Assembly: GCA_934087515.1 (NCBI GenBank)
Contig: CAKOIY010000001.1
Coordinates: 3,308-67,307, forward strand
Length of the DNA: 64,000 bases
DNA from: an uncultured Bacilli bacterium
Lineage (GTDB): Bacteria > Bacillota_I > Bacilli_A > RF39 > UBA660
Direction: 5' to 3'
In this document: positions 19,019-59,252 of the stretch, piece after piece
Position numbering within the stretch: the first letter of the stretch is position 1
Layout of the letters: every line of letters starts with the position of its first letter
Notes under the pieces: model-generated
The model's database searches: none
What the model was told of the DNA's origin: nothing
Seen by the model: the letters and a program-made list of their open reading frames with translations, nothing else
Made by a program: the position numbers and the translations under genes

Positions 19019-20707
19019 ATGAAAAAGAAAATTATATCGTTAGTTTTAGTATGTGCATTACTTATTACTATTTTACCTAGTGGTGTTAGTGCTCTTAGTA
19101 AGGTTAATCCTTCAGAGAAGAAGGAGGTTTCTTTAAAGAAAGTTAATGATAAGTCTTTAATTGTTAAAACTCCGACTGCTAAGCAAATTAGAAAGGCTGG
19201 TAGTGAACTTGATTTTTATAAACAAAGTTTTATTGAACAAGTTGAGGAGACTTATTCTCGATATGATTATGTAACTTATATTGATTCTGTTAGGAAGGCT
19301 TTTGAGAAGGCACATCAAGAGGCTATTGATACACTTAATAATCTTAGTTCTTTAGATGATTTGTTTTATGATTATGAGGAAGGTACTGTTTCTTTAGATG
19401 TTAATTTACCTTATGCTACTATGACTACTATTGGTGGTTGGGATTATGATTATGTTACTACTGATAATTATTATTTGACTTTGAAAAAACGTGGTCTTAA
19501 GGCTATAAATGATGCTTTTGATTGTTTTTATGAAGGGGATTTTAGTACTTATTATAATACTATAATTAATTCTTATCGTAGTGAGTATTTAGGATATGTA
19601 AGTAGTGCTAATGATTATTATTCACTTGCTAAAGGTTTTGCTAATATTGGTTTAGTTGGAGATTATAATAATTTTACATATGTTGATATTTCTTTTGATT
19701 TAGATAATTATAATGGTGAAGATGCTGAATCTATGTCTGGTTCTTGTCAATATGATGCTTATGGTTATTTTCCTGATTTTGAATATGTAGAGTTTTTAAA
19801 TAGTGTTGGTATTGCGTCTATTCCTTCTTATTCTCTTGGTCGTGTTATTTATTCTTTAGGAGAAGTTCAAGATACTAAAAATGCTTTTAGTGCATATATT
19901 AATAATTATGTATATGAACAACTTAAAGCTAGTGGTTATAAGGTTACTGATGAGATTATAGATATGGCTGATAAGACTCTTGATGATATTAATAATGGTT
20001 ATAATCCTGATACTATGTATACTAAGTATATTGATTTGATTGAAAAATTTGAAGATATGACTGGTGTTACTTATCAAAAACTTAGTTCTACTACTACATT
20101 TAAACTTGCTGCTGGTATTGATAAGTTATCTAAGAAGTATTTGGATAAAAAAGTTTATTCTAATGCTGGTTATAATACTAATTATAATCTATTAGATAAT
20201 GCTAGTAGTGCTATTAATGTTGTGTATGAGGTAGAAATACCTAGAAATTTCTTGGTTAAGCTTGAAAAACTTCTTAAGAAGACTCCAACTAGAGTTGTTG
20301 AACTTAGTAATGCCAAGAAGTCATATGCTAATAAGTTAAATACTTTTAAGAATAATAAAAAGTATAATCAAAAGAAAGTTGTTCCTATTGTTAATGAGGG
20401 AATTAGTAAAATAAATAAGGCTACTTCAGTTGATAGTGTTAAGAGTATATATAATACTTATTATAAGAAGGCTTTACTTACTATAAATAAATATAAGATA
20501 ACTACTTCAAAGACTGGTAAGGGTGTTATTACCAAGAGTAAAACTGTTAATTATGGTTCTAATGTTGTTATTACTATGACTCCTAGTAAGGGTTATAAAC
20601 TTAGTAAGGTTTATGTAGATGGTAAACGTGTTAGTGTTAAGAGTAAGTATACATTTAAGAATGTTACTTTGAATCATTCTATAAAGGCAGTTTTTGTTAA
20701 GAAGTAG
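19019..20707 (+). CDS. Secreted hypothetical protein with a C-terminal Listeria-Bacteroides (Flg_new/InlB B-repeat-like) domain
   Basis: A signal peptide is present. The C-terminal motif is GKGVITKSKTVNYGSNVVITMTPSKGYKLSKVYVDGKRVSV. Confidence 0.55.
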   Translation: MKKKIISLVLVCALLITILPSGVSALSKVNPSEKKEVSLKKVNDKSLIVKTPTAKQIRKAGSELDFYKQSFIEQVEETYSRYDYVTYIDSVRKAFEKAHQEAIDTLNNLSSLDDLFYDYEEGTVSLDVNLPYATMTTIGGWDYDYVTTDNYYLTLKKRGLKAINDAFDCFYEGDFSTYYNTIINSYRSEYLGYVSSANDYYSLAKGFANIGLVGDYNNFTYVDISFDLDNYNGEDAESMSGSCQYDAYGYFPDFEYVEFLNSVGIASIPSYSLGRVIYSLGEVQDTKNAFSAYINNYVYEQLKASGYKVTDEIIDMADKTLDDINNGYNPDTMYTKYIDLIEKFEDMTGVTYQKLSSTTTFKLAAGIDKLSKKYLDKKVYSNAGYNTNYNLLDNASSAINVVYEVEIPRNFLVKLEKLLKKTPTRVVELSNAKKSYANKLNTFKNNKKYNQKKVVPIVNEGISKINKATSVDSVKSIYNTYYKKALLTINKYKITTSKTGKGVITKSKTVNYGSNVVITMTPSKGYKLSKVYVDGKRVSVKSKYTFKNVTLNHSIKAVFVKK

Positions 20708-20788
20708 TACTAGTTATTAGAAAAACATTCTATAGGGTGTTTTTCTTTTTTTGTCTAAACATAAAAAAAATACTTAAACCAAGTATTT

Positions 20789-22273
20789 TTATATTACTAT
20801 AGCTATTAGATTGTTTGATCCTTTGTTTACTACTTTGGACATTGTTGTTTGAAATTTATATCTTACGTTTTCTGGCATCATTGATATTTTTGATTGGATT
20901 CCTTCTTGGACTATTTTGTCTAAGCTTCTTCCAAATATTTCGCTTGACCAGATACTGTTTGGATCACTATTGCTATCTTTCATTAGGTGTTCTATTAGTT
21001 CTTTGCTTTGGGCTTCGCTACCGATTATTGGTTCAAAGCTTGATTCTACATCTACTCTTATCATATGTATTGATGGTGCTGTTGCTTTTAGTTTTATTCC
21101 ATATCTTGATCCTTGTTTTGTTATTTCTGGTTTGTCTAATTTCATATCTTTTATAGTGGGATTTGCAACTCCGTATCCAGTTGTTTTTACCATTTTTAGA
21201 GCTTGTTCTAGTTCTTTATATTCTGTTTTTGTTTCTTTGTATTCTTGGAATATTTTCAAAAGATTTGTTTTGTTTGTTATGTCTATGTCAATCATTTCGT
21301 TTAATACTTTTTCGAATAGTTCTTGAGGTGCTTCTAATGTTATGGTTATGATTCCTGTTTTAGGATCTACTAAGGACATATAGGCATTTTTTATGTACTG
21401 GCAATTGTTGAAATGACTTATTATTCCATCAACATCACGTAATTTATCTACTTCAATTACACTTTCTTTTATTTTATCTATGTAAGCTTTTTTGACATAA
21501 TGATTTGGTTTTAGGATTCCAATCCATTCTGGTATATCGATGTTTACTTCTAATATAGGAAATTCATATAGAGCTTCTCTTAATATATTATTTATTTCTA
21601 TTTCATTCATATTTAGTACATCTATTGGTAGGACAGGTACTTTGTATTTTACTTTTAGTTCTTCTGTTAGTTTTTCTGTTTCTTTTGCTGTTGGTTTAGT
21701 TGTATTTAGTATTATTATATATGGTTTGTTTATTGAACTTAGTTCTAGTGCTATTTTTTCTTCTGCTTCAATATAGTCTTTTCTTGAGAATTCTCCGATA
21801 GTTCCATCTGTTGTAATCATTATTCCTATTGTTGAGTGGTCTCTTATTACTTTTTCTGTTCCTATTTCTGCGGCTTCAACGAATGGTATTTCATCTTTGT
21901 ACCAGGGGGTTTTTACCATTCTAGGGCCGTTTTCGTCTTCGTAGCCTTTGGCTTCATCAATTATGTATCCTACGCAGTCTACTAGTCTCATGTTACAAGT
22001 CATGTCATCTATTTTTATTTGGGCAACATTGTTGGGAACAAATTTGGGTTCTATAGTCATAATAGTTTTTCCTCCACTTGATTGTGGTATTTCATCTAGA
22101 GCTCTTTTTCTTTCGTATTCGTCTTCTATGTTGGGAACTATAAGTTCTTCTACTACTTTTTTGATAAAGGTTGATTTTCCAGTTCTTACTGCTCCAACTA
22201 CTCCTAGGTAAATGTCTCCGCCGGTACGATAGGCTATGTTTTTGATTATTTCTTGTTTATCCACATGCATCAC
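20789..22273 (-). CDS. spoIVA: Stage IV sporulation protein A (spore coat morphogenetic ATPase)
   Basis: The N-terminus ..IAYRTGGDIYLGVVGAVRTGKSTFIKK..PNIEDEYERKRALDELPQSSGGKTIMTIEPKFVPN..RLVDCVGY is near-identical in pattern to B. subtilis SpoIVA. The length is about 494 aa. Confidence 0.85.
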   Translation of the reverse strand: MMHVDKQEIIKNIAYRTGGDIYLGVVGAVRTGKSTFIKKVVEELIVPNIEDEYERKRALDEIPQSSGGKTIMTIEPKFVPNNVAQIKIDDMTCNMRLVDCVGYIIDEAKGYEDENGPRMVKTPWYKDEIPFVEAAEIGTEKVIRDHSTIGIMITTDGTIGEFSRKDYIEAEEKIALELSSINKPYIIILNTTKPTAKETEKLTEELKVKYKVPVLPIDVLNMNEIEINNILREALYEFPILEVNIDIPEWIGILKPNHYVKKAYIDKIKESVIEVDKLRDVDGIISHFNNCQYIKNAYMSLVDPKTGIITITLEAPQELFEKVLNEMIDIDITNKTNLLKIFQEYKETKTEYKELEQALKMVKTTGYGVANPTIKDMKLDKPEITKQGSRYGIKLKATAPSIHMIRVDVESSFEPIIGSEAQSKELIEHLMKDSNSDPNSIWSSEIFGRSLDKIVQEGIQSKISMMPENVRYKFQTTMSKVVNKGSNNLIAIVI

Positions 22274-23687: not shown

Positions 23688-24764
23688 ATGTTTGATTTAG
23701 CTATGACGGACCAACTTGCTAAGATAAAAGTAATAGGAGTTGGTGGTGGCGGCGGTAATGCCATTAATAGAATGATTGATGCTGGAGTTAGAGGTGTTGA
23801 CTTTATTGCGGTTAATACTGATGCTCAAGTTTTGAACGCTTCGAAAGCAGAAAAGAAGATTCAACTTGGTACTCTTGGTGCTGGTGGTAGACCTGAAATT
23901 GGAAAAGAGGCTGCTATTAAGGCTAAAAAGGAACTTGAAGAAAGTTTGAAAGGTGCAGATATGGTATTTATCACTTGTGGTATGGGTGGTGGAACTGGTA
24001 CTGGTGCTGCACCGGTAATTGCAGAGATTGCTCAGAGTTTAGGTGCTCTTACAGTGGCTATTGTTACTAGACCTTTCTCTTTTGAAGGTAAGAGAAGAAT
24101 GGATAATGCTCTTGCTGGAATTGAAGAACTTAAGGAACATGTTGATACTTTAATTGTGATACCTAATGATAGGTTAAGGGAAATTATTGATAAATCTACT
24201 TCTATGCTTGATGCGTTTAAGGAAGTTGATAATGTTCTTTTACGTGGTGTACAATCTATATCTGATTTGATTGCTGTTGTTGGGTTGGTAAACCTAGACT
24301 TTGCTGATGTTAGGGCGGTTATGGAAAAATCAGGTAATGCTATTATTGGTATTGGTATTGGTATGGGAGAAGATAGGGCAATTGAAGCGGCTAAGCAAGC
24401 AGTTTCATCTCCGCTTCTTGAAACTTCGATTCATGGTGCTACTGATGCAATTATTAATATTACTGGTGGTTCTAATTTAACATTGTTTGAAGCTGAACAA
24501 GCAGCAGAGGTTGTAAGAGCTGCAGCTAATACAGATATAAATACTATATTTGGTTCAGTTATTAATGAAAATCTTACTGATGAGGTTATTGTTACAGTAA
24601 TTGCTACTGGTTTTGATAAGAAAAATAAGAATAAGAAACCTCTTTATAATCAACTTAATAGTAGAAGTGATGGTTATATCGATGATGATGAGGATGATGA
24701 TGCAAATGCTGGGTTTGATCCTCAAGAAATTGAAATACCAACTTTTATGCATCGTAATTTTTAG
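23688..24764 (+). CDS. ftsZ: Cell division protein FtsZ
   Basis: It has the tubulin signature GGGTGTG, plus [13 protein letters not shown] and the T7 loop NLDFADV. Confidence 0.95.
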
Positions 24765-36121: not shown

Positions 36122-36463
36122 ATGTTTGAAAATATGAGTAATAGTCCATTTATGATGCCTAATCAAGAGGGGTTTATTGATATTGATAATAATCAAGGAA
36201 ATATTGATATTGATTTAAATCAAAGTCAAACTAGTAATATTAATAATGGCCCTATGATGGGTATGACTTCTCAACCTATAATTGAACCTATGAGAGAAAG
36301 AGTTGTTAATAGAACAATTGAACATGTTGTACCACATGTGTGTCCTGTTAGAACAAGAATAGTAAATCATCATGTGTTTAAACATACTTATAGTCCAAGT
36401 TATAGTTGTTGTGAAGAAAATGTTTGTGAAAATGTACAATGTGGTTCTTGTTGTAATTATTAG
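36122..36463 (+). CDS. CotD-like small His/Cys-rich spore coat protein
   Basis: The motif IEHVVPHVCPVRTRIVNHHVFKHTYSPSYSCCEEN...CCNY resembles B. subtilis CotD (VHPTHCCEHHTF..HIHP..NHQHFQHVHYFPHTF...CCDY), including the terminal CC-x-Y. Confidence 0.45.
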   Translation: MFENMSNSPFMMPNQEGFIDIDNNQGNIDIDLNQSQTSNINNGPMMGMTSQPIIEPMRERVVNRTIEHVVPHVCPVRTRIVNHHVFKHTYSPSYSCCEENVCENVQCGSCCNY

Positions 36464-45826: not shown

Positions 45827-47956
45827 ATGGAAAAGAGGTTTAAGAGGGCATTTACTTTGGTTGAAATGTTAGTAGTTGTAGGAATTATTGCGGCTTTAAT
45901 GGTAACGGTTATTCCTATGGTTTCTAAGTATATAAAGGATGGAAAGAATGATTATAATGAGAAGCTTAAGTCTCAATTATTACTTTCTGGTAAGGATTAT
46001 TATAGTAATAATAAGGATAAGCTTCCTGTTAAAGTTGGTTTAAAGTATAAAAGTAAGGATTATGATGTTGTTTCTTTACCAGAGATGCAAAGTCAGAATT
46101 ATGTAAGTAATGATTTTGTTGATGCATATGGAAATAGTTGTAAGGAAAGTTTTGTTTATGTAAGGCAGAAGAATGATGCTAAAGAATATGATTATCATGC
46201 TTGTTTGAGATGTACTGATAAGAATGGTAAAATTATTAATTATAGTAATGATTTTGTTTGTAAAGGTAATAATTGGGGAGATGAGGTTGGTCCTGTTTGT
46301 TCTAATGATGCTAGTTATAATATTGGTGTTAGAAAGAAAAATGGTCATGTGTTTAATCCTAGTTCGGTTCTTTTAAGAGGTGTTAGAGATAGTTATGCTA
46401 CTAGTGGTGATAATAAAGGTAAGATAGTTGGGGCTTATGTTGAAGGAAAAGTTAAAGGTTTTCAAGTTTTTTTTCCTAGTAGTTATAGTTTTGATAATAT
46501 AATGGGTGTTAACTTTATAGAAAAGATTAATAAAGAATATTCAGAAAAAAATAGAAATGATGAGTATATTATAACTTTAACTGATGGTGTTCATACTTCT
46601 AGTAGTTGTGCTAAGTTTGTGATAGATAAAGAAAAACCTAGTTGTGTTTTTGATTTAAAGCAAAGTAAGGGTAATAAAACTTTGACTCTTAGTTCTAAGG
46701 ATAATTATAGTGATTCTATTAATATTAGTAAGCTTATTTCTTTGAAGGATAATGAAACTAGTGTAGAGGATAAAGGTATTAGAGTTTCTACTGTTTCTAA
46801 GAGTGTTTTAGGACTTAAAGATAGTATGTATTATGGTTATACTATGGATGAGGCTGGTAATAGTAATACTTGTTCTAAGAAAGTAAAAATAAAGATGTTT
46901 GATGGGGAAAAACCTTATTGTACTATTACTAATGATGTTGATAATAAATGGTATAGTTCTAAAGGTACATATAGAAGTAAGACTTTAAAGGCTGAGTGTT
47001 ATGTTGCAGGAGGTGCTAATAAAGCAAAAGTTGATTTGAAGAAAATTGGTGTAAGTAATGCAGTTGGTTCTGTTAGTGCTAAGAAAACTGATAATGATAA
47101 TCCTGATAATAAAGTTACTTTTGATATAGTGTTTACGCCTGCTAATAATAAGGCTGGTAATACAGTTGTTAGTTTGAATGAAGGTTTTGTTACAGATGAT
47201 GCCGGAACTACTAATGATAGTGTTAAGTCTTCAAATATTAAAGTTGATTCTATATCTCCTAGTATTAGTTATGCTCCTCAAACTTCTAAAGAAAGTGGAG
47301 GTTGGTATAAGGCTCCATTTAAACTTAAGTTAAGTTGTTTAGATAGTAATAGTGGTGTTTCTAGTTTTAAAGTTAATAATTCTAACTTTAGTTCTGGTAG
47401 TATAATTACTAGAAATAGTGCTGCTAATCCAGTTACTTATGCTTCTGTTTGTGTAGATAAAGCTGGTAATAGTGCTAGTGGTTCTAATAGTTATAAGGTT
47501 AAGGTTTATTCTGAAAATTCTATTTGTGGTATTAAGTCTTATGTAAAATGTAGACATAAAGATTGTGGGTGTGAAACTTATAAATATTGTACTAATGGAT
47601 GTAAAGTTTATAAGAAATGTAGTGCATATACTAATTGGTCATGTAAGAAAAAGACAAAGACTACTGGTTGTGTTGCTTATGGTATAGGTAAGAAATGTCC
47701 TTCTTGTTCACCTTATACAAAAACTACTAGTAAAAGAACTTGTGGTAAGTGTACTAATAAAATTTGTAAAAAAGTTGCTGGTGCTATTGTAACTATTAAA
47801 TATACTAGAAGTTATACTGATTGTACTCGTAGTTCTTATACATATAATTGTGGTTGCAAAACATATTATTATAAACAATGTGGTTGTAAGCAATATGTTT
47901 ATTGTGCTACTAAGAGATGTGGTGTTAAGTCATATGAGTCATGTTGGCATTATTAA
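45827..47956 (+). CDS. Giant modular type IV pilin-like protein (709 aa), paralogue 2, with an extremely Cys/Lys/Thr/Tyr-rich C-terminus
   Basis: The N-terminus MEKRFKRA|FTLVEMLVVVGIIAAL is a class-III signal. The conserved head includes YDYHACLRC. Repeat units begin [DE]K.P..C. The last ~150 aa contain 27 Cys. An RBS AGAGGAG lies upstream. Confidence 0.75.
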   Translation: MEKRFKRAFTLVEMLVVVGIIAALMVTVIPMVSKYIKDGKNDYNEKLKSQLLLSGKDYYSNNKDKLPVKVGLKYKSKDYDVVSLPEMQSQNYVSNDFVDAYGNSCKESFVYVRQKNDAKEYDYHACLRCTDKNGKIINYSNDFVCKGNNWGDEVGPVCSNDASYNIGVRKKNGHVFNPSSVLLRGVRDSYATSGDNKGKIVGAYVEGKVKGFQVFFPSSYSFDNIMGVNFIEKINKEYSEKNRNDEYIITLTDGVHTSSSCAKFVIDKEKPSCVFDLKQSKGNKTLTLSSKDNYSDSINISKLISLKDNETSVEDKGIRVSTVSKSVLGLKDSMYYGYTMDEAGNSNTCSKKVKIKMFDGEKPYCTITNDVDNKWYSSKGTYRSKTLKAECYVAGGANKAKVDLKKIGVSNAVGSVSAKKTDNDNPDNKVTFDIVFTPANNKAGNTVVSLNEGFVTDDAGTTNDSVKSSNIKVDSISPSISYAPQTSKESGGWYKAPFKLKLSCLDSNSGVSSFKVNNSNFSSGSIITRNSAANPVTYASVCVDKAGNSASGSNSYKVKVYSENSICGIKSYVKCRHKDCGCETYKYCTNGCKVYKKCSAYTNWSCKKKTKTTGCVAYGIGKKCPSCSPYTKTTSKRTCGKCTNKICKKVAGAIVTIKYTRSYTDCTRSSYTYNCGCKTYYYKQCGCKQYVYCATKRCGVKSYESCWHY

Positions 47957-47984: not shown

Positions 47985-48049
47985 ATTGATAAAATTTTAT
48001 TTTTGTTTTATAATATTTTATAGTGATAATAGTGTTGGGAGGTATGAGT

Positions 48050-49732
48050 ATGTTTAATAGAAAAGGTTTTACTTTAGTAGAAGTTTTGGCTGTTGTTATT
48101 ATACTTTCTGTTTTATCTATTATGGTTATACCTAATGTTAGTGAATATGTTGCACAGGGTAAGGATGAATATAATAAAAGTCTTAAGAAAACACTTATTT
48201 TGGCGGGAAAGAATTTTTATTCTGATAACAGGATGAGAATTCCTAAACCAGTTGGTGTTGTTACTGATTTTGTTACCGCTAATGAACTTGCAAGTAAGAA
48301 TTATCTTACTGGTAGTTTTGTTGATTCTGATAAAAATGATTGTAAGAGTAAGAGTTATGTAGTGGCGGTTAATGAAATTTCTGATGTTAAGTATCATGCT
48401 TGTTTAACTTGTGGGGATAAGAATTATAGTTCTGATGATGAGTATTGTGATGTAATGGTTCGTGATATTGATTCTTCTAATCCATCTAATCCTAGTGATA
48501 GTGGTAAGAGTAAGGTTACTTGTAGTGTTAGTGCTAAAGATACTGATGATGGTGCTAGTGTTACTATTGATGCGAATAGTAGTAAAGAAAAAATTAATAA
48601 GATTATTTACTATAATACTGATACTAAGAAGTCTACAAGTTTATTAACTGATTCTGAATATAGTACTTCTATTAAAAAAACGATAACTATTAGTGATTTT
48701 GGAAAATTTAAGATTTATGTATCTAGTAGTGATGGTGTTAGAACTGATTGTGATGGTTCGGTTATTGATAATAGTTTTTCTGCTAATTTTAAAGTTGATA
48801 TGTATTTAGTTAATAAGTCAGAATATGATTCTCATAAAAATACTGAATATACTAAGACTGAGCTTAATAAACTTGAAAAATATGATGGTACTACTTGGAA
48901 AAATGCTTATGTATATGCTAAGCTTACTTATAAGAAGAGTAGATTTTCTAGTGTTGAGTTTGATGGTAATAATTTAAATAATAAATTTATTTGGCTTGAT
49001 GCAGAGGGTGCTAAAGATTATAAGATTACTGCTGTTGATAAGAAAAATGGTACTCAAACAGTTTCTTTAAGCACTAAGCTTGATAGAACTCCACCTACAG
49101 TTGCTTTTTCTAGAACTCCTGGTGATGGTTGGACTAATCAAGCTGTTACAGTTACTTCTACTCCTAGTGATGTTTCTTCTGGTATTGAAGGATTGTACTA
49201 TAGTACAAATAATGAAGATTGGAGTAAAGTTTCTTATAGTGGTTCTTTTGTTAAAGTATGGGAGAGAACTAATACTTCTAAAACTATGTATGTAAAGGCT
49301 AAGGATAATGTTGGGCTTTATTCTGATGTTAAAAGTTCAAATATTTTGATTGATGTGGTGCCTCCTGTTATGTATAAGCATTGTTTATATAAGGTTGCAA
49401 GTAAGAAATGGTATTTTAGGTATTATTTTAGTGATTCTGGTGGATCTGGGTATAGTGGTTATAAATGGGGTTATTGTTACAGAATTTGTCCTAAGTGTCC
49501 TAGTAGTTATATGTGTTCTTATAGATCTGCTGATAGTAAAGCTGCTAGTTCTAATACTTGGTATCATGGTAGTTATAAGGAAACTTCTTATCAAATTGCT
49601 CCGACTAGAGGTGCTAGGACTATTGGTTCTACTACTAGGTTATATTTTAAAGATAATGCTGGTAATGTTGCTACTGGAAGTTATACTGATACTTGGTATT
49701 ATGGTGGGGGTAGTAGTCCAGGTAGTTGTTAA
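48050..49732 (+). CDS. Giant modular type IV pilin-like protein (about 560 aa), paralogue 3
   Basis: The N-terminus MFNRKG|FTLVEVLAVVIILSVL is a class-III signal. The conserved head includes YHACLTCGDKNYSSDDEYC, and there is an Ig-like repeat TPPTVAFSRTPGDGWTNQAVTVTSTPSDVSSGIEGLYYS. An RBS GGGAGG sits 8 nt before ATG at 48050. The track's start at 48023 is probably overextended. Confidence 0.75.
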   Translation: MFNRKGFTLVEVLAVVIILSVLSIMVIPNVSEYVAQGKDEYNKSLKKTLILAGKNFYSDNRMRIPKPVGVVTDFVTANELASKNYLTGSFVDSDKNDCKSKSYVVAVNEISDVKYHACLTCGDKNYSSDDEYCDVMVRDIDSSNPSNPSDSGKSKVTCSVSAKDTDDGASVTIDANSSKEKINKIIYYNTDTKKSTSLLTDSEYSTSIKKTITISDFGKFKIYVSSSDGVRTDCDGSVIDNSFSANFKVDMYLVNKSEYDSHKNTEYTKTELNKLEKYDGTTWKNAYVYAKLTYKKSRFSSVEFDGNNLNNKFIWLDAEGAKDYKITAVDKKNGTQTVSLSTKLDRTPPTVAFSRTPGDGWTNQAVTVTSTPSDVSSGIEGLYYSTNNEDWSKVSYSGSFVKVWERTNTSKTMYVKAKDNVGLYSDVKSSNILIDVVPPVMYKHCLYKVASKKWYFRYYFSDSGGSGYSGYKWGYCYRICPKCPSSYMCSYRSADSKAASSNTWYHGSYKETSYQIAPTRGARTIGSTTRLYFKDNAGNVATGSYTDTWYYGGGSSPGSC

Positions 49733-53754: not shown

Positions 53755-54201
53755 TTATTTTGCTTCTTTTATGAATCCAGCTGATTCTATTTTTGATTTT
53801 ATTCTAGCTTTAGTTTGTTCTCCTTCTATTTTGATTAGGCTTTCTTCTCCTTTATCGAAAAATAAGACTGTTGGAGTTCCATTTATACTAAATAGTTCAT
53901 CATAAATTTCTTGTTCTTTTTCTGATAGATTGCTTATGTTTAGACTATAGGCTTCTATATTATTTTCACTTAATACACTTATGAAGTTTGGAGTAAATGC
54001 TTTGCAGTGTTCACAGTCTGTTTGTTTTATGTAAAGAATGAAGTTATCTTTGTTTTTGATTTTTGATGTTACTTCGTTTAATGTTATGTCGTGGATGTAT
54101 TTTTCTTTGTCTTGTGAGAATACTAAAGCAATTATTATTAAGGCTATTATTAGTAATATAAATAGGAATAGCCATTTATGTTTTTTTATCATTTTTAACA
54201 C
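53755..54201 (-). CDS. Membrane-anchored thioredoxin-fold thiol-disulfide oxidoreductase
   Basis: It has an N-terminal TM helix and a CEHC (CxxC) active site in thioredoxin-like context. Confidence 0.6.
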   Translation of the reverse strand: MLKMIKKHKWLFLFILLIIALIIIALVFSQDKEKYIHDITLNEVTSKIKNKDNFILYIKQTDCEHCKAFTPNFISVLSENNIEAYSLNISNLSEKEQEIYDELFSINGTPTVLFFDKGEESLIKIEGEQTKARIKSKIESAGFIKEAK

Positions 54202-54311
54202 CTCTTTTTTAATGATAGCATATTTGTTTTTTAAAATAAATATTTTAGGGTAAATTTGTTTACAATTTTGTATATTTATAGTAAAATATGGTGTATTTGA
54301 GGAGGTATATT

Positions 54312-54857
54312 ATGAAAGATACTAAGTTTTATAGGGTTGAGACTTTGGGTATGGTGTTTGATGAGAATATGGAGTTATGTGTTCCTAATGTTATTGGTAA
54401 GAAAAGTAATTTTTTTGAGGGTAAGGATTTTAAATATGATAGTATGCCAATGTTTGCGTATTTATCTGATGATGTGTTAAGGGATGTTGTTACGGATGAT
54501 ATTGTTAAGTTTGAATCTAATTTTATACTTCCAGATGGGGTATCTGTTTCTAAGAGTATAAAGGATGATAGTTTGGATGATATTGTTGCTATTTCAATTA
54601 AGCCTGTTACTGTTGATGCTATGTTTGGTTGGGTTTTTGAACTTGATAGGGAAGATGTTAAGAGATATATTACAGAGGTTGATAAGTTAAAGAAAATTAG
54701 TATTAGGAGATATGGTGTTAGAAATAAAGTTAAATCTATAAGAGAGGATGAATATCTTAAGGGGTTAATGCTTGATAATATTAATAGTTTTAAGAATAAT
54801 TGTTTTCTTATAAAAAGGGAAATGAATTCTGATTTTAAGTTTGTTAAGAGAAAATAA
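54312..54857 (+). CDS. Hypothetical protein
   Basis: This is a clean ORF. I recognise no family for it. Confidence 0.35.
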   Translation: MKDTKFYRVETLGMVFDENMELCVPNVIGKKSNFFEGKDFKYDSMPMFAYLSDDVLRDVVTDDIVKFESNFILPDGVSVSKSIKDDSLDDIVAISIKPVTVDAMFGWVFELDREDVKRYITEVDKLKKISIRRYGVRNKVKSIREDEYLKGLMLDNINSFKNNCFLIKREMNSDFKFVKRK

Positions 54858-54882
54858 GTGCTAGAAAAAACAAGGCACTTTT

Positions 54883-56583
54883 TTAGTTGCCTTGTATGTT
54901 ATTATCGTTATATATATTTTTTAATAGGTCGTCGGTGTAGTTTTCTTTGTTTTGGGTATTGTTATCTATTCTTAAGGAATTAAAGACATTGTCATCGAAT
55001 AGATTTCCGTCATTATTGTTTGTAAATATGTTTTGCTGTGGTTCTTGGTTGTTGTTTATTTGTGGTTTATTTATTTGGTTTGAGTTTTCTAGTTGTTCAA
55101 TGTTTTGATTTATGTTTTCGTTAGGAATATTTATTATGTTTTGATTTGTTTGATTATTTTGGTTTTCTGGTGTTTCTTGTTGTATGTTATTTTGATATGT
55201 GTTGTTTATTTGTTCTTGTGGATTGTTATTTAATATTTCTTGGTTTACATTGTTATTCTGATTGTTTTCTGTTATTGTTTGGTTGTTGTTTATTATTTCT
55301 GGATTTGTATATATCATGTTGTTATTCATTAGTGGATTGTTTTCATCTGATGTGTCTATTCCTATGGTTTTATCTACAAAATCTTCGGAGATGTCATCGT
55401 AGTCGTCGTAATCTACTAATCTAAATACTTCTTTTAAATCTGTTATTCCTTCTAGGACTTTTATTAATCCATCTTGGAATAGGGTTTTTACATTTTTTTT
55501 GTATATTAAATGTTTTAGTTCTTCACGATCGATTCCTTTATTGATAGCTTCTCTTATTTCTTCATTTATCATTAATACTTCTTGAAGGGCAATTCTTCCT
55601 GTGTAACCGTTATGACAGTGTTCACAATTTCCGGCTTCATATATTGTGTCTATATTTATTCCTAGTGCTTTTTTGAATAGTATTTTTTCTGTTTCGTTAG
55701 CAGGTCTTTGAGTTCTACAACGTGGACATAGTTTTTTTGCTAGGGTTTGCGAGATTATTCCCTTTAGTGATGATGATAAGAGGTATCTTTCAACATCCAT
55801 ATCGATAAGTCTTTCGATGGTTGTTAGGGAATTGTTTGTATGTAGTGTTGATAGTACTAGATGTCCTGTTATAGATGCACGTATTGCTATTTTTGCTGTT
55901 TCACTATCACGAATTTCTCCGATTAGAATGATGTTAGGGTCTTGTCTTAGAATTGAACGAAGTACTGTAGCAAAGTCTAATCCAATTTCAGAGTTTACTT
56001 GTACTTGGTTAAGTCCTTCGATACTCATTTCTACGGGATCTTCTACTGTTATGATGTTTGTTTCTTCTTTGTTTAGTTTTTGAAGCATTGAATATACTGT
56101 TGTAGATTTACCAGATCCAGTTGCTCCGGTTATTAGGATGATACCGTTAGGACTGTTTAACATTTCCATAATTATTTTGTAGTTATCTCCGGTGAAACCT
56201 AGGTATTCTATTCCTTGTAAACTCATTGAATAGTCTAGGATTCTGATAACTATTTTTTCTCCAAAGCTTGTTGGTAAGGCAGATACACGAAGATCTAAAT
56301 CTTTTCCTTCGATAACACTTTTTATAGCACCATCTTGTGGTAGTCTTGATTCTGTGATATTCATTCCTGCAAGTAGTTTTACTCTAGTTGTAAGATTTCT
56401 TTTGTATTTGTTATCTATTATGGCATAATCACGAAGTTCTCCATCTATTCTTATTCTAATTTTTAGGTATTTTTCTGCTGGATCAAAATGAATATCACTA
56501 GCATTTCTTACTACTGAATCAATTATAATATCATTTACTATGTCTACTATGGGAGTGGTAGTAAAATCAAATTCTCGCATCAT
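54883..56583 (-). CDS. ComGA/PilB/GspE-family secretion ATPase with a ~175-aa Asn/Gln-rich C-terminal extension
   Basis: It has Walker A GATGSGKST, the Asp box/Walker B and the His box TLHTN. The tetracysteine motif is CPRC...CEHC. An N/Q low-complexity tail (NNQTITENNQNNNVNQEILNNNPQEQ...) follows. Confidence 0.8.
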   Translation of the reverse strand: MMREFDFTTTPIVDIVNDIIIDSVVRNASDIHFDPAEKYLKIRIRIDGELRDYAIIDNKYKRNLTTRVKLLAGMNITESRLPQDGAIKSVIEGKDLDLRVSALPTSFGEKIVIRILDYSMSLQGIEYLGFTGDNYKIIMEMLNSPNGIILITGATGSGKSTTVYSMLQKLNKEETNIITVEDPVEMSIEGLNQVQVNSEIGLDFATVLRSILRQDPNIILIGEIRDSETAKIAIRASITGHLVLSTLHTNNSLTTIERLIDMDVERYLLSSSLKGIISQTLAKKLCPRCRTQRPANETEKILFKKALGINIDTIYEAGNCEHCHNGYTGRIALQEVLMINEEIREAINKGIDREELKHLIYKKNVKTLFQDGLIKVLEGITDLKEVFRLVDYDDYDDISEDFVDKTIGIDTSDENNPLMNNNMIYTNPEIINNNQTITENNQNNNVNQEILNNNPQEQINNTYQNNIQQETPENQNNQTNQNIINIPNENINQNIEQLENSNQINKPQINNNQEPQQNIFTNNNDGNLFDDNVFNSLRIDNNTQNKENYTDDLLKNIYNDNNIQGN

Positions 56584-56704
56584 AAAAATCGTTCCCCTTT
56601 ATTCTAATTTGTAAAATTCATAGTTATTTTATTTTTACACTAGAATTTATTCTAAAAGTATTATATAATAAATTTGTAAAATAAGCAAGTAGAAGGTGAG
56701 TAAT

Positions 56705-58585
56705 ATGAGAAGGAAATTAAAAAATAATAAGGGTTTTGCTATGGCTGAGTTATTGGCTGTTTCTATGGTAATATTGCTTCTTTTTTCTATTCTTTTTTCT
56801 AATTATTTACCACTTGTTGCAGAATATGAGAATAGGCTTAGTTATAATGATGTAACTGCGGAGTATGCTGGTTATTATGTTAGAAAGATGTATTTGACTG
56901 ATGATAATAAATTGTCTAGTTCTACTAAAAATTTTATTAATGATGGTATTGGTAATAAGGCTTTTTATAAGGTTTATGATAAGAGTAGTAAAATTAATAA
57001 TGTTTGTTCTTGGTATTCTAATTTGCAAGCTGATGATAAAAAAGTTGCTGCTAGGAATTATTGTAATAATATTTTAGAGGAGTATGGTGTTGAAGAAATA
57101 ATTATTACTAATTATAGTATGACTAATGTTAAGAGTAAGTATACTGAATCTTCTGGAAAACTTTATAAGTATATAAAGTATTTACCTGAATATAAGAATA
57201 CTATTTATAAGGGTGATAATGATTTATATAGGATTATTTTAAAAACTAAAGATGGTTATGCTACTACTCCGATTGATACTGATTATTATACTCCTGGTAG
57301 TTGTTTTGTTGGTAGAAGTGTTTCTGGTGGCATTGAAATTACTAAATATAATATGTCTGGTAGTGATTGTGGCTCTAGTGTTACTATAAGAAAAGATAAG
57401 AAACTTACTATGAAGAATAGTGCTGGTAAGAGTATAACTGGTAAGGTTGTTTCTATTGGAAATAGTGCTTTTAAGGATCTTGAAGTTACTTCTATTAATT
57501 TAAATAGTATGGTAAAGAGTATTGGTGCTAGTGCATTTGAAGGTTCTAAACTTGAGAGTGATAGTATTAATTTGACTGGTGTTACTAGTATTGGAGATAG
57601 AGCTTTTAAAAATACTCAAATTAGTAGTATTGATATACCTTCTAGGGTTACAAAAGTTGGAAAAGAAGCATTTGCTAATAATAGTAAGCTTACTTCAATT
57701 AAGATTAATAATAGTGTTGTTAGTGAAGGGGAATTTATGAAATCTGGTGATAATAGTGTTATTAGTTATATTAATCTTGGAAGTGTTACTAAAATAAGTA
57801 AAAATATGTTTTATAACTTTAAGTTTTCTAGTGATAGTGCTATAGTAATGTCAAATGTTACTAATATTGATGAAAGTGCTTTTGCAAGTGATGCTATTCA
57901 AAAAATAAATAATATCTCTATTAGTAAAGTTACTAGTGTTGGTAATAAGGCTTTTTATAATTTAGATATTAAGAATTTGGTTTTAGGTAATATTAGTAGT
58001 ATAGGTGATAAGGCATTTGCTTTAAGTAGTGGTAGTAGTAATAGTAATAGTTTACCTAAAGTTGATTTGAGTTTTGTTACTGTTTTAGGAAATAATGCTT
58101 TTGAAAATAGAAAGATTGATGAATTAAATCTTAGTGGTTCTAGTATTGCTTCTATTTCTAACTATGCTTTTAAATCTTGTGATATTTCTAGTGTTACTTT
58201 TTCTGATAAGATTACTAGTGTTGGAGAAGGTAGTTTTGAAGGAAATAATTTTAATAAAATTGATTTACCTAGTTCTTTAACTAATATTGGGGTTAATGCT
58301 TTTAAGGAAAACTCTAATATTACTAGTTTTGATTTACCAGCTTCTTTAAATGTTATTGGAAATGGTGCTTTTGATAGTTGGAGTAAACTTGAAACTATTA
58401 ATAATAATTCTACTAAATTTAATGATTATGATAATTGGTGTATGGTTGTTGCTAGTGGTGATACTAGTTGTAAAGCTGAAAAGAGTGATACTGGTTATGC
58501 TATAGGTATTGGTGATAGAAGTATTAATGTAGTTAATAGTAATAGTAATAAAACTTCTGAGAATGGGGGTAATAGTAATGAATAA
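56705..58585 (+). CDS. Pseudopilin-like protein with BspA-type leucine-rich repeat domain
   Basis: The N-terminus MRRKLKNNKG|FAMAELLAVSMVILLL has a class-III signal with Glu at +5. It is followed by 12 or more ~22-25-aa repeats of the type (I/V)xSIGxxAFxxxxLxSIxxP. Confidence 0.7.
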   Translation: MRRKLKNNKGFAMAELLAVSMVILLLFSILFSNYLPLVAEYENRLSYNDVTAEYAGYYVRKMYLTDDNKLSSSTKNFINDGIGNKAFYKVYDKSSKINNVCSWYSNLQADDKKVAARNYCNNILEEYGVEEIIITNYSMTNVKSKYTESSGKLYKYIKYLPEYKNTIYKGDNDLYRIILKTKDGYATTPIDTDYYTPGSCFVGRSVSGGIEITKYNMSGSDCGSSVTIRKDKKLTMKNSAGKSITGKVVSIGNSAFKDLEVTSINLNSMVKSIGASAFEGSKLESDSINLTGVTSIGDRAFKNTQISSIDIPSRVTKVGKEAFANNSKLTSIKINNSVVSEGEFMKSGDNSVISYINLGSVTKISKNMFYNFKFSSDSAIVMSNVTNIDESAFASDAIQKINNISISKVTSVGNKAFYNLDIKNLVLGNISSIGDKAFALSSGSSNSNSLPKVDLSFVTVLGNNAFENRKIDELNLSGSSIASISNYAFKSCDISSVTFSDKITSVGEGSFEGNNFNKIDLPSSLTNIGVNAFKENSNITSFDLPASLNVIGNGAFDSWSKLETINNNSTKFNDYDNWCMVVASGDTSCKAEKSDTGYAIGIGDRSINVVNSNSNKTSENGGNSNE

Positions 58586-59252
58586 TAAGGGTATGACTAT
58601 TGTTGAACTTATTGTAACTTTTTCTCTTTTACTTGTTATTGTAGTTGGTATGTTTAATTTGATAACTGATGTTAAGCTTGAACTTGAGAATAAGCAAATA
58701 GGGAAGGATTTTACTGAGTATTCTTCTACTATAGGGAATAAGATACAATATGATTTTTTAAATAGTAAGATTGGTTCTATTGCTTTTAAGAATAGTGGTA
58801 ATGAATGGAGTTGTGTAAATAGATCCGGTCCCTGTGTAAGTGTTCCTAGTGGTGGTTATATGTTTGGTAACAAAAGTATAACTTTTGATGAGCTTAATAG
58901 TATGTGTAAGGATATTACTCCTTGTGTTGTTTATTCTTATAAGAATGGTAATAATGATGATTTTAGAGTTATTGGTCTTAATATAGAGCCTAGTAGCTCT
59001 GGTGCTTTAGCTAAATATGGTATATATTATAATGGTGTTTTTGAAGCTATTCCTGATCAAGATTATGTTGAGATTAAGAATGTTATTAATGTTAGTGATT
59101 CTGATGAAGAAGAAGATGTTGTTGCTAAGAAACCAGAGGCTAGATATGAGAATGATTTATTTGTTATTGATTTTCCTTTTTATTTAGTTGATAGTAATAA
59201 GAATTATGGTTTTAAAATTGTTTATTCTTTTGATACTAAAGAAAATAAATAA
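58578..59252 (+). CDS. Pseudopilin-like protein (about 225 aa)
   Basis: The N-terminus MNNKG|MTIVELIVTFSLLLVIVVGMF has a class-III signal. Its start overlaps the upstream gene's stop by 8 nt. Confidence 0.6.
   Translation: MNNKGMTIVELIVTFSLLLVIVVGMFNLITDVKLELENKQIGKDFTEYSSTIGNKIQYDFLNSKIGSIAFKNSGNEWSCVNRSGPCVSVPSGGYMFGNKSITFDELNSMCKDITPCVVYSYKNGNNDDFRVIGLNIEPSSSGALAKYGIYYNGVFEAIPDQDYVEIKNVINVSDSDEEEDVVAKKPEARYENDLFVIDFPFYLVDSNKNYGFKIVYSFDTKENK

Follow-up and report, generated by a model that had tools for sequence, protein, structure and literature searches.

A selectively maintained acidic tail with two conserved motifs on type IV filament ATPases of uncultured gut Bacilli

We analyzed a 64,000-nt stretch of contig CAKOIY010000001.1 from an uncultured Bacilli bacterium (RF39; UBA660), hereafter the window, in which an uninterrupted open reading frame (ORF; 54883..56583, minus strand) encodes a 566-aa ATPase of the GspE/PilB type that ends in a long, Asn/Gln-rich tail. 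Comparison with related proteins shows this tail to be a clade-wide, selected, acidic, and compositionally disordered extension, in which a nearly free spacer is combined with two conserved amphipathic motifs. The Asn/Gln richness of the spacer is a by-product of mutation bias; the properties that are conserved are the negative charge, the near-exclusion of Lys, Arg, and His, and the terminal motifs. The tail is most likely a flexible tether for partner binding rather than junk, and it is probably not a prion.

The ATPase and the borders of its tail

The assignment to the T2SSE family rests on a match to the Pfam profile PF00437 that spans aa 10-388 of the protein and positions 6-370 of the 370 in the profile (E=1.3e-122), with a score of 409.5 bits against a gathering cut-off of 24.9. 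The signature of the GspE/PilB subgroup is complete, comprising a Walker A motif (GATGSGKST, aa 153-161; 56101..56127, minus strand), a His box (TGHLVLSTLHTN, aa 239-250), and a tetracysteine zinc motif (CPRC...CEHC, formed by C286/C289 and C320/C323; 55615..55728, minus strand), all of which are invariant in 72 homologues. The N1/GSPII-type N-terminal domain is absent. Among the NCBIfam models, the best matches are GspE (TIGR02533; score 473.8, cut-off 630.25), PilB (TIGR02538; 455, cut-off 675.65), and ComGA (NF041000; 263.5, cut-off 300); because every one of these scores falls under its equivalog cut-off, the protein can be assigned no more narrowly than to the "GspE/PulE family" of ATPases. 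Its identity to PilB-type cluster representatives is 45-50%. The ATPase core comprises aa 1-390 (55414..56583, minus strand). It is highly uniform, with a mean column conservation of 0.94 and a between-strain ratio of nonsynonymous to synonymous substitution rates (dN/dS) of 0.02-0.08.

The tail consists of the 176 residues from D391 to N566 (54886..55413, minus strand). An initial annotation of this DNA had placed it at 54883-55410, an interval that holds aa 392-566 and the stop codon (175 aa) and thus misses the first residue; similarly, the ordered stretch that it described after CEHC is present, but is 67 rather than about 50 aa long. The tail contains 54 Asn, 20 Gln, and 21 Ile (31% N and 11% Q), and the N/Q/I-rich peptide quoted in that annotation is found in the protein. 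Asp and Glu number 29 and Lys and Arg 5, with a single Arg, for a net charge of -24; there are 4 Phe, 6 Tyr, and 7 Pro, and Ala, Cys, His, and Trp are all absent. The best 40-aa segment of the ATPase has an N+Q fraction of 0.62, whereas none of the other 51 ORFs in the window exceeds 0.35. Thus, N/Q richness is not a proteome-wide habit. The tail had been described as in frame and uninterrupted, and this is borne out by the single 566-aa ORF and by the occurrence of the same protein, identical, on nine contigs of public assemblies, from at least two separate samples. The tail is therefore not an assembly or frameshift artefact.

Alignments with solved GspE and PilB/PilF chains stop at query aa 387-394, which in native constructs lies at most a few residues from the end of the chain (496 of 500 for GspE 4pht; 588 of 588 for PilB 5tsg). 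Thus, the 176-aa tail has no counterpart in characterized members of the family, and the view that GspE, PilB, and ComGA ATPases normally end at this point, which makes the tail unusual, holds for the solved structures as well as for the outgroups described below. Tandem Repeats Finder detected only short and weak repeats within the tail, with units of 9-12 nt and one 39-nt unit present in 2.1 copies, which rules out a regular repeat array as the nature of the tail.

The tail is present throughout the clade

The relatives of the window protein come from metagenome-assembled genomes of uncultured human and animal gut bacteria that are labelled Bacilli, Tenericutes, Mycoplasmatota, or Erysipelotrichaceae and have 24-34% GC. 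All of the best 120 database matches listed (70-100% identity) carry tails, of ca. 113-300 aa. So do all 27 clade loci of species-representative genomes, with tail lengths of 31-300 aa at core identities of 58-93%. In three outgroups with 44-48% identity, the protein ends 3-6 aa past the core. In an exhaustive search of cluster representatives, the overhang past the core came to no less than 30 aa in every one of the 22 representatives at or above 54% identity (median 314, maximum ca. 990), whereas 96 of the 124 representatives below this value end no more than 12 aa past the core. Thus, when the orthologues are compared, as the initial annotation had proposed, the tail is found to be kept while its length varies widely. 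The net charge of the tail is negative at 25 of 25 loci and in 119 of 119 homologues.

The longest tails are made of tandem repeats. In the representatives P0136, P0139, and P0140 and at loci L021 and L026, tails of 300 to ca. 990 aa contain long T/P/K/E-rich tandem repeats such as (EEAFKVVPPKEEKKEEPKKVTIK)n. With two to three times as many residues as the ATPase itself, these tails nevertheless close with the acidic-hydrophobic tip LDIDGELTALGED. Among distant PilB-like proteins there are several other long extensions that, as judged by eye, end in receiver-domain-like sequence (DDYI.KPF), and some that begin with a cysteine-rich, zinc-ribbon-like segment. Absence of the N-terminal domain coincides with a tail in 22 representatives, and both are absent in 5; most of these belong to one clade, and the relation is a correlation only.

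Two conserved motifs lie beyond a hypervariable spacer

Alignments of 39, and later of 72, homologues divide the tail into a proximal segment that is acidic, an N/Q-rich spacer that is hypervariable, and a distal module that holds two motifs. The tail is thus not the one uniform low-complexity tract that it had been taken for, because it contains invariant residues and motifs free of gaps. The proximal segment (aa 391-445; 55249..55413, minus strand) starts with the acidic patch DYDDYDDISEDFVD, in which D391 and D393 are invariant. This patch begins right at the end of the last core helix, and an acidic start of this kind is common to the whole clade. The spacer (aa 446-513; 55045..55248, minus strand) has about 40% gap columns, a conservation of 0.29, and short tandem repeats; conservation of the tail outside the motifs is 0.25-0.30. 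Within the spacer lies a small conserved island, IINIPN (55120..55137, minus strand), in which P487 is near-invariant.

The distal module (aa 514-566; 54886..55044, minus strand) is markedly different. Motif 1, NLFDDNVFNSLRI (aa 527-539; 54967..55005, minus strand), has a conservation of 0.85 and no gaps; N527, F529, D531, and F534 are invariant, N535 and L537 near-invariant, and its helical hydrophobic moment is 0.48, as compared to a tail mean of 0.26. Motif 2, NYTDDLLKNIY (aa 548-558; 54910..54942, minus strand), likewise has no gaps, with a conservation of 0.73, invariant or near-invariant Y549, L553, and I557, and a hydrophobic moment of 0.56, the maximum of the tail. The hydrophobic-moment peaks of the tail thus coincide with the two motifs. 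Across the 120 homologues, motif 1 is 58-264 aa away from the core and 7-29 aa away from motif 2, and both motifs remain in frame in essentially all 120.

A sister clade with 80% core identity retains motif 2, in the form YTDELINLINQD, together with a reduced motif 1, NIFNTLRV. More distant tails have in common only the acidic start and an acidic-hydrophobic end (DDDYIDVI, KEIEDF, DDSIIDNILAEID, or EMLADLNSII). Across the clade (n=37 tails), hydrophobic residues account for a fraction of 0.32 of the last 15 positions and of 0.23 of the remaining tail (Wilcoxon p=2e-6).

Selection acts on the two ends of the tail

Comparison of the window with the closely related locus L034 gave a dS of 0.27 and a dN/dS of 0.02 for the core (aa 1-390), values of 0.44 and 0.04 for the proximal tail, 0.06 and 0.38 for the spacer, and 0.44 and 0.02 for the distal tail. 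With other strains, the proximal dN/dS was 0.00 (L001) and the distal dN/dS 0.00 (L035) and 0.11 (L001); against L004, which has 78% identity, the ratios were 0.05 for the core, 0.24 for the proximal tail, 0.47 for the spacer, and 0.18 for the distal tail. When the proximal and distal segments were pooled, 4 of 22 changes were nonsynonymous, against a neutral expectation of 0.83 (binomial p=5e-11). Since the synonymous sites of the tail in these segments change at least as fast as those of the core, the constraint is on the protein rather than on the DNA. In the spacer, where most indels are located, dN/dS between strains was ca. 0.17-0.56 and the nonsynonymous fraction was not significantly under the neutral value (p=0.07-0.17). 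The initial annotation had concluded that the tail is either tolerated or selected. Selection is indeed what the proximal and distal segments show, with dN/dS values like those of the core and a tail that orthologues keep, but it does not extend to the Asn/Gln richness.

The spacer also contains a mosaic block (aa 451-514; 55042..55233, minus strand), recognized by nucleotide identity in successive bins. The window shares 97-100% identity with L035 and L036 over the core bins and only 62-90% in this block, whereas with L034 the block is 97-100% identical and the remainder about 90-98%. This pattern indicates that divergent spacer alleles have recombined, in addition to slippage-type indels. 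Such mosaicism among otherwise near-identical strains could reflect diversifying selection or just relaxed constraint.

Asn/Gln richness follows strand-specific mutation bias

The window has ca. 29% GC, and the GC skew of its plus strand is +0.27 to +0.51 in every 2-kb bin except 20001-22000, where it is +0.10. At third codon positions, plus-strand genes have 61% T, 22% A, 16% G, and 1.1% C, and minus-strand genes have 58% A, 21% T, 17% C, and 4% G. To our knowledge, and as an impression only, this asymmetry is far above what would be expected for Firmicutes. Amino acid usage differs between the strands because of this extreme compositional asymmetry: plus-strand genes encode 7.9% Ile, 8.2% Val, and 1.5% Gln, and minus-strand genes 16.4%, 4.4%, and 2.4%, respectively. 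The ATPase gene lies on the C-rich lagging strand. As a minus-strand gene, it has an A- and C-rich coding strand, and this favors the Asn codons AAY as well as CAA for Gln, ACA for Thr, CCA for Pro, and ATA for Ile.

Consistent with such an origin, the composition of the tail tracks the strand bias among relatives. Over 25 loci, the fraction of Q+P+T+H in the tail correlates with the GC3 skew of the core with a Spearman coefficient of -0.78, and that of S+V+G+D with one of +0.70; tails rich in S/D/V occur in relatives whose strand bias is the opposite one, and tails rich in T/E/P in still others. We scored a protein as Q/N-rich if it had at least 30 Q/N in 80 aa. This is the classical threshold, which is said to go back to Michelitsch and Weissman in 2000. 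The window protein, with 47 N+Q in its richest 80 aa (aa 440-519), exceeds it and so has a prion-like composition by this measure. The same is true of 115 of the 120 close homologues, but of only 5 of 24 loci and none of 24 distant tail-bearing representatives; the sister clade with 80% core identity, at 17-28 Q/N per 80 aa, is also under the threshold. Since the threshold is not reached outside the subclade of the window protein itself, the Q/N richness that drew attention to the tail is a local by-product and not a conserved property.

Base composition does not account for the tail completely. Relative to a random translation of the tail's own base composition, Lys (2.3% observed vs. 19.8% expected), Arg (0.6% vs. 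4.7%), and His (0% vs. 4.3%) are strongly depleted, whereas Asp and Glu together are enriched (16.5% vs. 4.8%). The third codon position, at which the initial annotation had suggested looking for constraint, is constrained precisely where it decides between Asn and Lys: the ratio of AAY to AAR codons is 54:4 in the tail and 22:26 in the core. Thus, the neutral AT-rich drift that had been put forward as an alternative describes the sequence and length of the middle spacer (aa ca. 446-513), but not the proximal and distal segments, and even in the spacer the composition is constrained.

Predicted disorder

In a charge-hydropathy plot, the mean hydropathy of the tail (0.334) lies below the boundary of 0.462 and that of the core (0.489) above its boundary of 0.418, and each tail segment falls on the disordered side. 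Two structure predictions with AlphaFold2 (AF2), based on 39 and 72 aligned clade sequences, gave a mean predicted local distance difference test (pLDDT) score of 41 and 43, respectively. The tail scored 21-41, which lends only weak support to disorder, as the models were poor even for the core. We used from these models only the recurrence of three short helices, which were the sole helices predicted in the tail and appeared in both runs: one in the proximal tail (aa 392-405 and 395-405), one in motif 1 (aa 532-536 in both), and one over motif 2 (aa 549-562 and 549-560).

A tether for partner binding and its alternatives

With moderate confidence, we read this lineage-specific, selectively maintained, disordered acidic tail as a tether that presents short binding motifs to a partner. 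In composition, being strongly acidic and poor in Lys, Arg, His, and aromatic residues, it is closer to an acidic tether than to a classical prion domain. Mutation bias (ca. 29% GC and a C-rich lagging strand) supplies Gln, Thr, and Pro codons to the spacer, and selection against basic residues leaves the spacer polar, acidic, and unfolded. ATPases of the T2SSE family work as hexamers. A hexameric motor of this kind would carry six flexible, negatively charged arms, and the motifs at the ends of these arms may dock onto a partner. In trans, this partner could be a positional landmark or another component of the pilus machine; in cis, it could be the surface of the ATPase ring, with the tail as a regulator.

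Several points weigh against this reading. We identified no partner or binding surface: tblastn found no match to motifs 1 and 2 in phage or plasmid collections, and a regular-expression search found none outside the ATPase ORFs in 428 kb (window and loci). Conservation of the motifs fits a purely cis, autoregulatory role equally well, and motifs 1 and 2 in this form are confined to relatives with ca. 70% core identity or more. The dN/dS values come from few strain pairs and from NG86 counting at an extremely biased base composition, indels make the alignments of the spacer unreliable, and the Spearman and Wilcoxon tests carry no phylogenetic correction. All of the sequences are from metagenomes of uncultured organisms, and the AF2 models, with a mean pLDDT of 41-43, say nothing reliable about disorder or docking.

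One alternative, that the tail is functionless AT-rich read-through or slippage product that is merely tolerated, would account for the many indels, short tandem repeats, and strain mosaic of the spacer, for its near-neutral nonsynonymous fraction and its dependence on strand bias, and for tail lengths that range in the clade from 31 to ca. 990 aa. It does not account for proximal and distal dN/dS values of 0.02-0.04 at normal dS, for invariant residues and gap-free motifs to which the frame is kept in essentially every one of 120 homologues, for the exclusion of Lys, Arg, and His relative to the DNA composition, or for a tail in every clade member examined. Pure neutral expansion is thus contradicted for the tail as a whole, where we give it very little credence, but it describes the sequence of the spacer. 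The Q/N tract might instead drive a putative self-association, as amyloid or by phase separation, that clusters or switches the motor. The 47 Q/N in the best 80 aa, the abundance of Ile and Asn, the multivalency that presentation on a hexamer would give, and the bacterial precedents of Rho from Clostridium botulinum (Cb-Rho; PMC4703818) and linker-driven condensation of the single-stranded DNA-binding protein SSB (PMC12143593) all speak for such a prion-like or condensate-forming domain. However, neither the sister clade nor any more distant tail has retained the Q/N richness, although tail, charge, and terminal motifs all persist there, and the Q/N-rich part is the least constrained one. A net charge of -24 with one Arg, 4 Phe, 6 Tyr, and 7 Pro is also unfavorable for homotypic assembly, and we regard this explanation as very improbable. 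A bolder form of it, in which the six-fold Q/N spacer of this subclade would act as a self-associating switch that clusters or heritably silences the filament machine, with fast spacer turnover by recombination and indels among strains tuning or diversifying the switch, seems to us slightly less probable again.

An autoinhibitory or regulatory tail that acts in cis deserves more weight, although we still hold it to be unlikely. The distal helices or the acidic patch would here fold onto the ATPase ring and gate ATP turnover or the state of the hexamer; the tether would keep the conserved motifs at a high local concentration around the enzyme, the acidic patch follows immediately on the last core helix, autoinhibition through tail-core contact is documented for FtsZ (PMC12747378), and a similar role has been suggested for a disordered region of PilU (PMC13584747). 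Fold-back would tolerate a core-to-motif distance that varies from 58 to 264 aa and more, but does not need such variation, and no confident docking was seen with AF2, though the models are too poor for this to count. Finally, the tail could have a non-specific physical role without any binding site, as an acidic entropic bristle that confers solubility on the hexamer or keeps it apart from the nucleoid, the anionic membrane, or other motors. Universal negative charge, exclusion of basic residues across very different tails, and freedom of length and sequence agree with a bristle; two gap-free, near-invariant amphipathic motifs and the clade-wide hydrophobicity of the last 15 residues remain unexplained by it, and we consider it improbable. 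In a less radical version of the bold switch reading, likewise of low probability, the tail would stand in for the missing N1 domain and anchor the motor to the platform or to some landmark of the pole or the division site.

Comparison with known systems

The protein resembles GspE, PilB, and ComGA in its full-length N2 and C-terminal ATPase domains, Walker A motif, His box, tetracysteine motif, and adjacent prepilin genes, and differs from them in lacking an N1/GSPII domain and in having a 176-aa acidic disordered tail found in no solved structure. Our literature searches on C-terminal tails of ComGA/PilB-type ATPases and on pili in RF39/RFN20-type lineages yielded a single precedent, the ca. 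112-aa C-terminal intrinsically disordered region (IDR) of Myxococcus xanthus PilU. This region occurs only in myxobacteria, and a regulatory function has been proposed for it (PMC13584747). Both are lineage-restricted disordered C-terminal tails on hexameric type IV pilus ATPases, with a proposed regulatory or partner-binding role. PilU, however, is a PilT-type retraction motor, whereas the tail described here is polyanionic, has two defined motifs, and is reported as twice as long or longer; the two tails were compared by description, not by sequence.

Outside the pilus field, the closest parallels in design are FtsZ and bacterial SSB. FtsZ has an NTPase core, a disordered linker of highly variable length and sequence, and a short conserved C-terminal peptide (10.1101/632075) that acts in trans, on membrane anchors, or in cis (PMC12747378); its fold and system are unrelated, and the end of the FtsZ encoded in the window is unlike motifs 1 and 2. 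SSB is likewise an oligomeric core with several low-complexity, intrinsically disordered linkers that end in an acidic-hydrophobic tip and vary in composition between species (PMC7145534; PMC12143593). The SSB tip lies at the very C terminus and has known partners, whereas here 7-81 aa separate the motifs from the end, and in the clade the linker is acidic over its full length. Cb-Rho is also a hexameric ATPase of an AT-rich Firmicute with a Q/N-rich tract, in that case a functional prion-like domain (PMC4703818; PMC6400439), and there, too, Q/N is conserved only sporadically among relatives. In contrast to Cb-Rho, the Q/N tract described here is the least constrained part of the tail, is strongly acidic, and is replaced by S/D/V- or T/E/P-rich sequence in close relatives. 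What is new, therefore, is an undescribed, clade-defining motor of the PilB/GspE type without N1 and with a motif-bearing acidic IDR; the principle itself is familiar, and the function we propose for it is inferred.

This architecture characterizes an entire clade of type IV filament ATPases, those of uncultured gut Bacilli with reduced genomes. Should the motifs serve as docking sites, they would offer a concrete handle on how the motor is anchored or regulated where the usual N-terminal interaction domain is absent. The tail also provides a natural example of two layers on one sequence, in which strand mutation bias writes the composition and selection holds the charge, the absence of basic residues, and the motifs. 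In AT-rich genomes, "prion-like" should accordingly not be read from composition alone.

Genomic context

Two prepilin-type genes, recognized by their N-terminal motif, are transcribed divergently from the ATPase gene. The first (56696..58585, plus strand) encodes a 629-aa protein with BspA-type leucine-rich repeats (Pfam LRR_5), and the second (58563..59252, plus strand) a 229-aa protein. Two further large genes with the same motif, encoding proteins of 709 aa (45827..47956, plus strand) and 569 aa (48023..49732, plus strand), lie 5-9 kb from the ATPase gene among the dcw cell-division genes. The divergent arrangement of ATPase and prepilin genes recurs at most of the related loci examined, and prepilin genes are the only consistently syntenic neighbors there. 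This association identifies the ATPase as the assembly motor of a type IV filament system. Neither a T2SSF platform protein nor a prepilin peptidase is present within the 64-kb window; at the distant loci L014 and L015, a T2SSF platform protein and an A24 peptidase adjoin the ATPase gene. Three of the four prepilin-type proteins are unusually large (709, 569, and 629 aa), and the 629-aa one has the leucine-rich repeats; this suggests a filament on which adhesin-like domains are displayed.

The pilus genes are interleaved with those of the dcw cluster, including mraZ (49871), mraW (50307), PBP2B (51576), and a Mur ligase (61345). The FtsZ of the window (23688..24764, plus strand) has an acidic C-terminal linker and a terminal peptide. 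We considered, given the location of the ATPase gene among dcw genes, that motif 1 might mimic the C-terminal peptide of FtsZ, and rejected this because the end of the FtsZ from the window resembles NLFDDNVFNSLRI too weakly and there is no Pro. A 189-aa ORF without a Pfam match (54288..54857, plus strand) is convergent with the ATPase gene, with 25 nt between the stop codons. It and a thioredoxin-like gene were also dismissed as candidate partners, as they are syntenic in the closest strains only and are replaced by PriA or others elsewhere. A promoter and terminator scan of 54200..56800 revealed nothing beyond shuffle expectation. The sole other moderately N/Q-rich ORF of the window (0.35 in 40 aa) encodes a 113-aa protein (36122..36463, plus strand) with a weak Pfam match to the spore-coat protein CotD, a hint that this reduced-genome lineage may sporulate.

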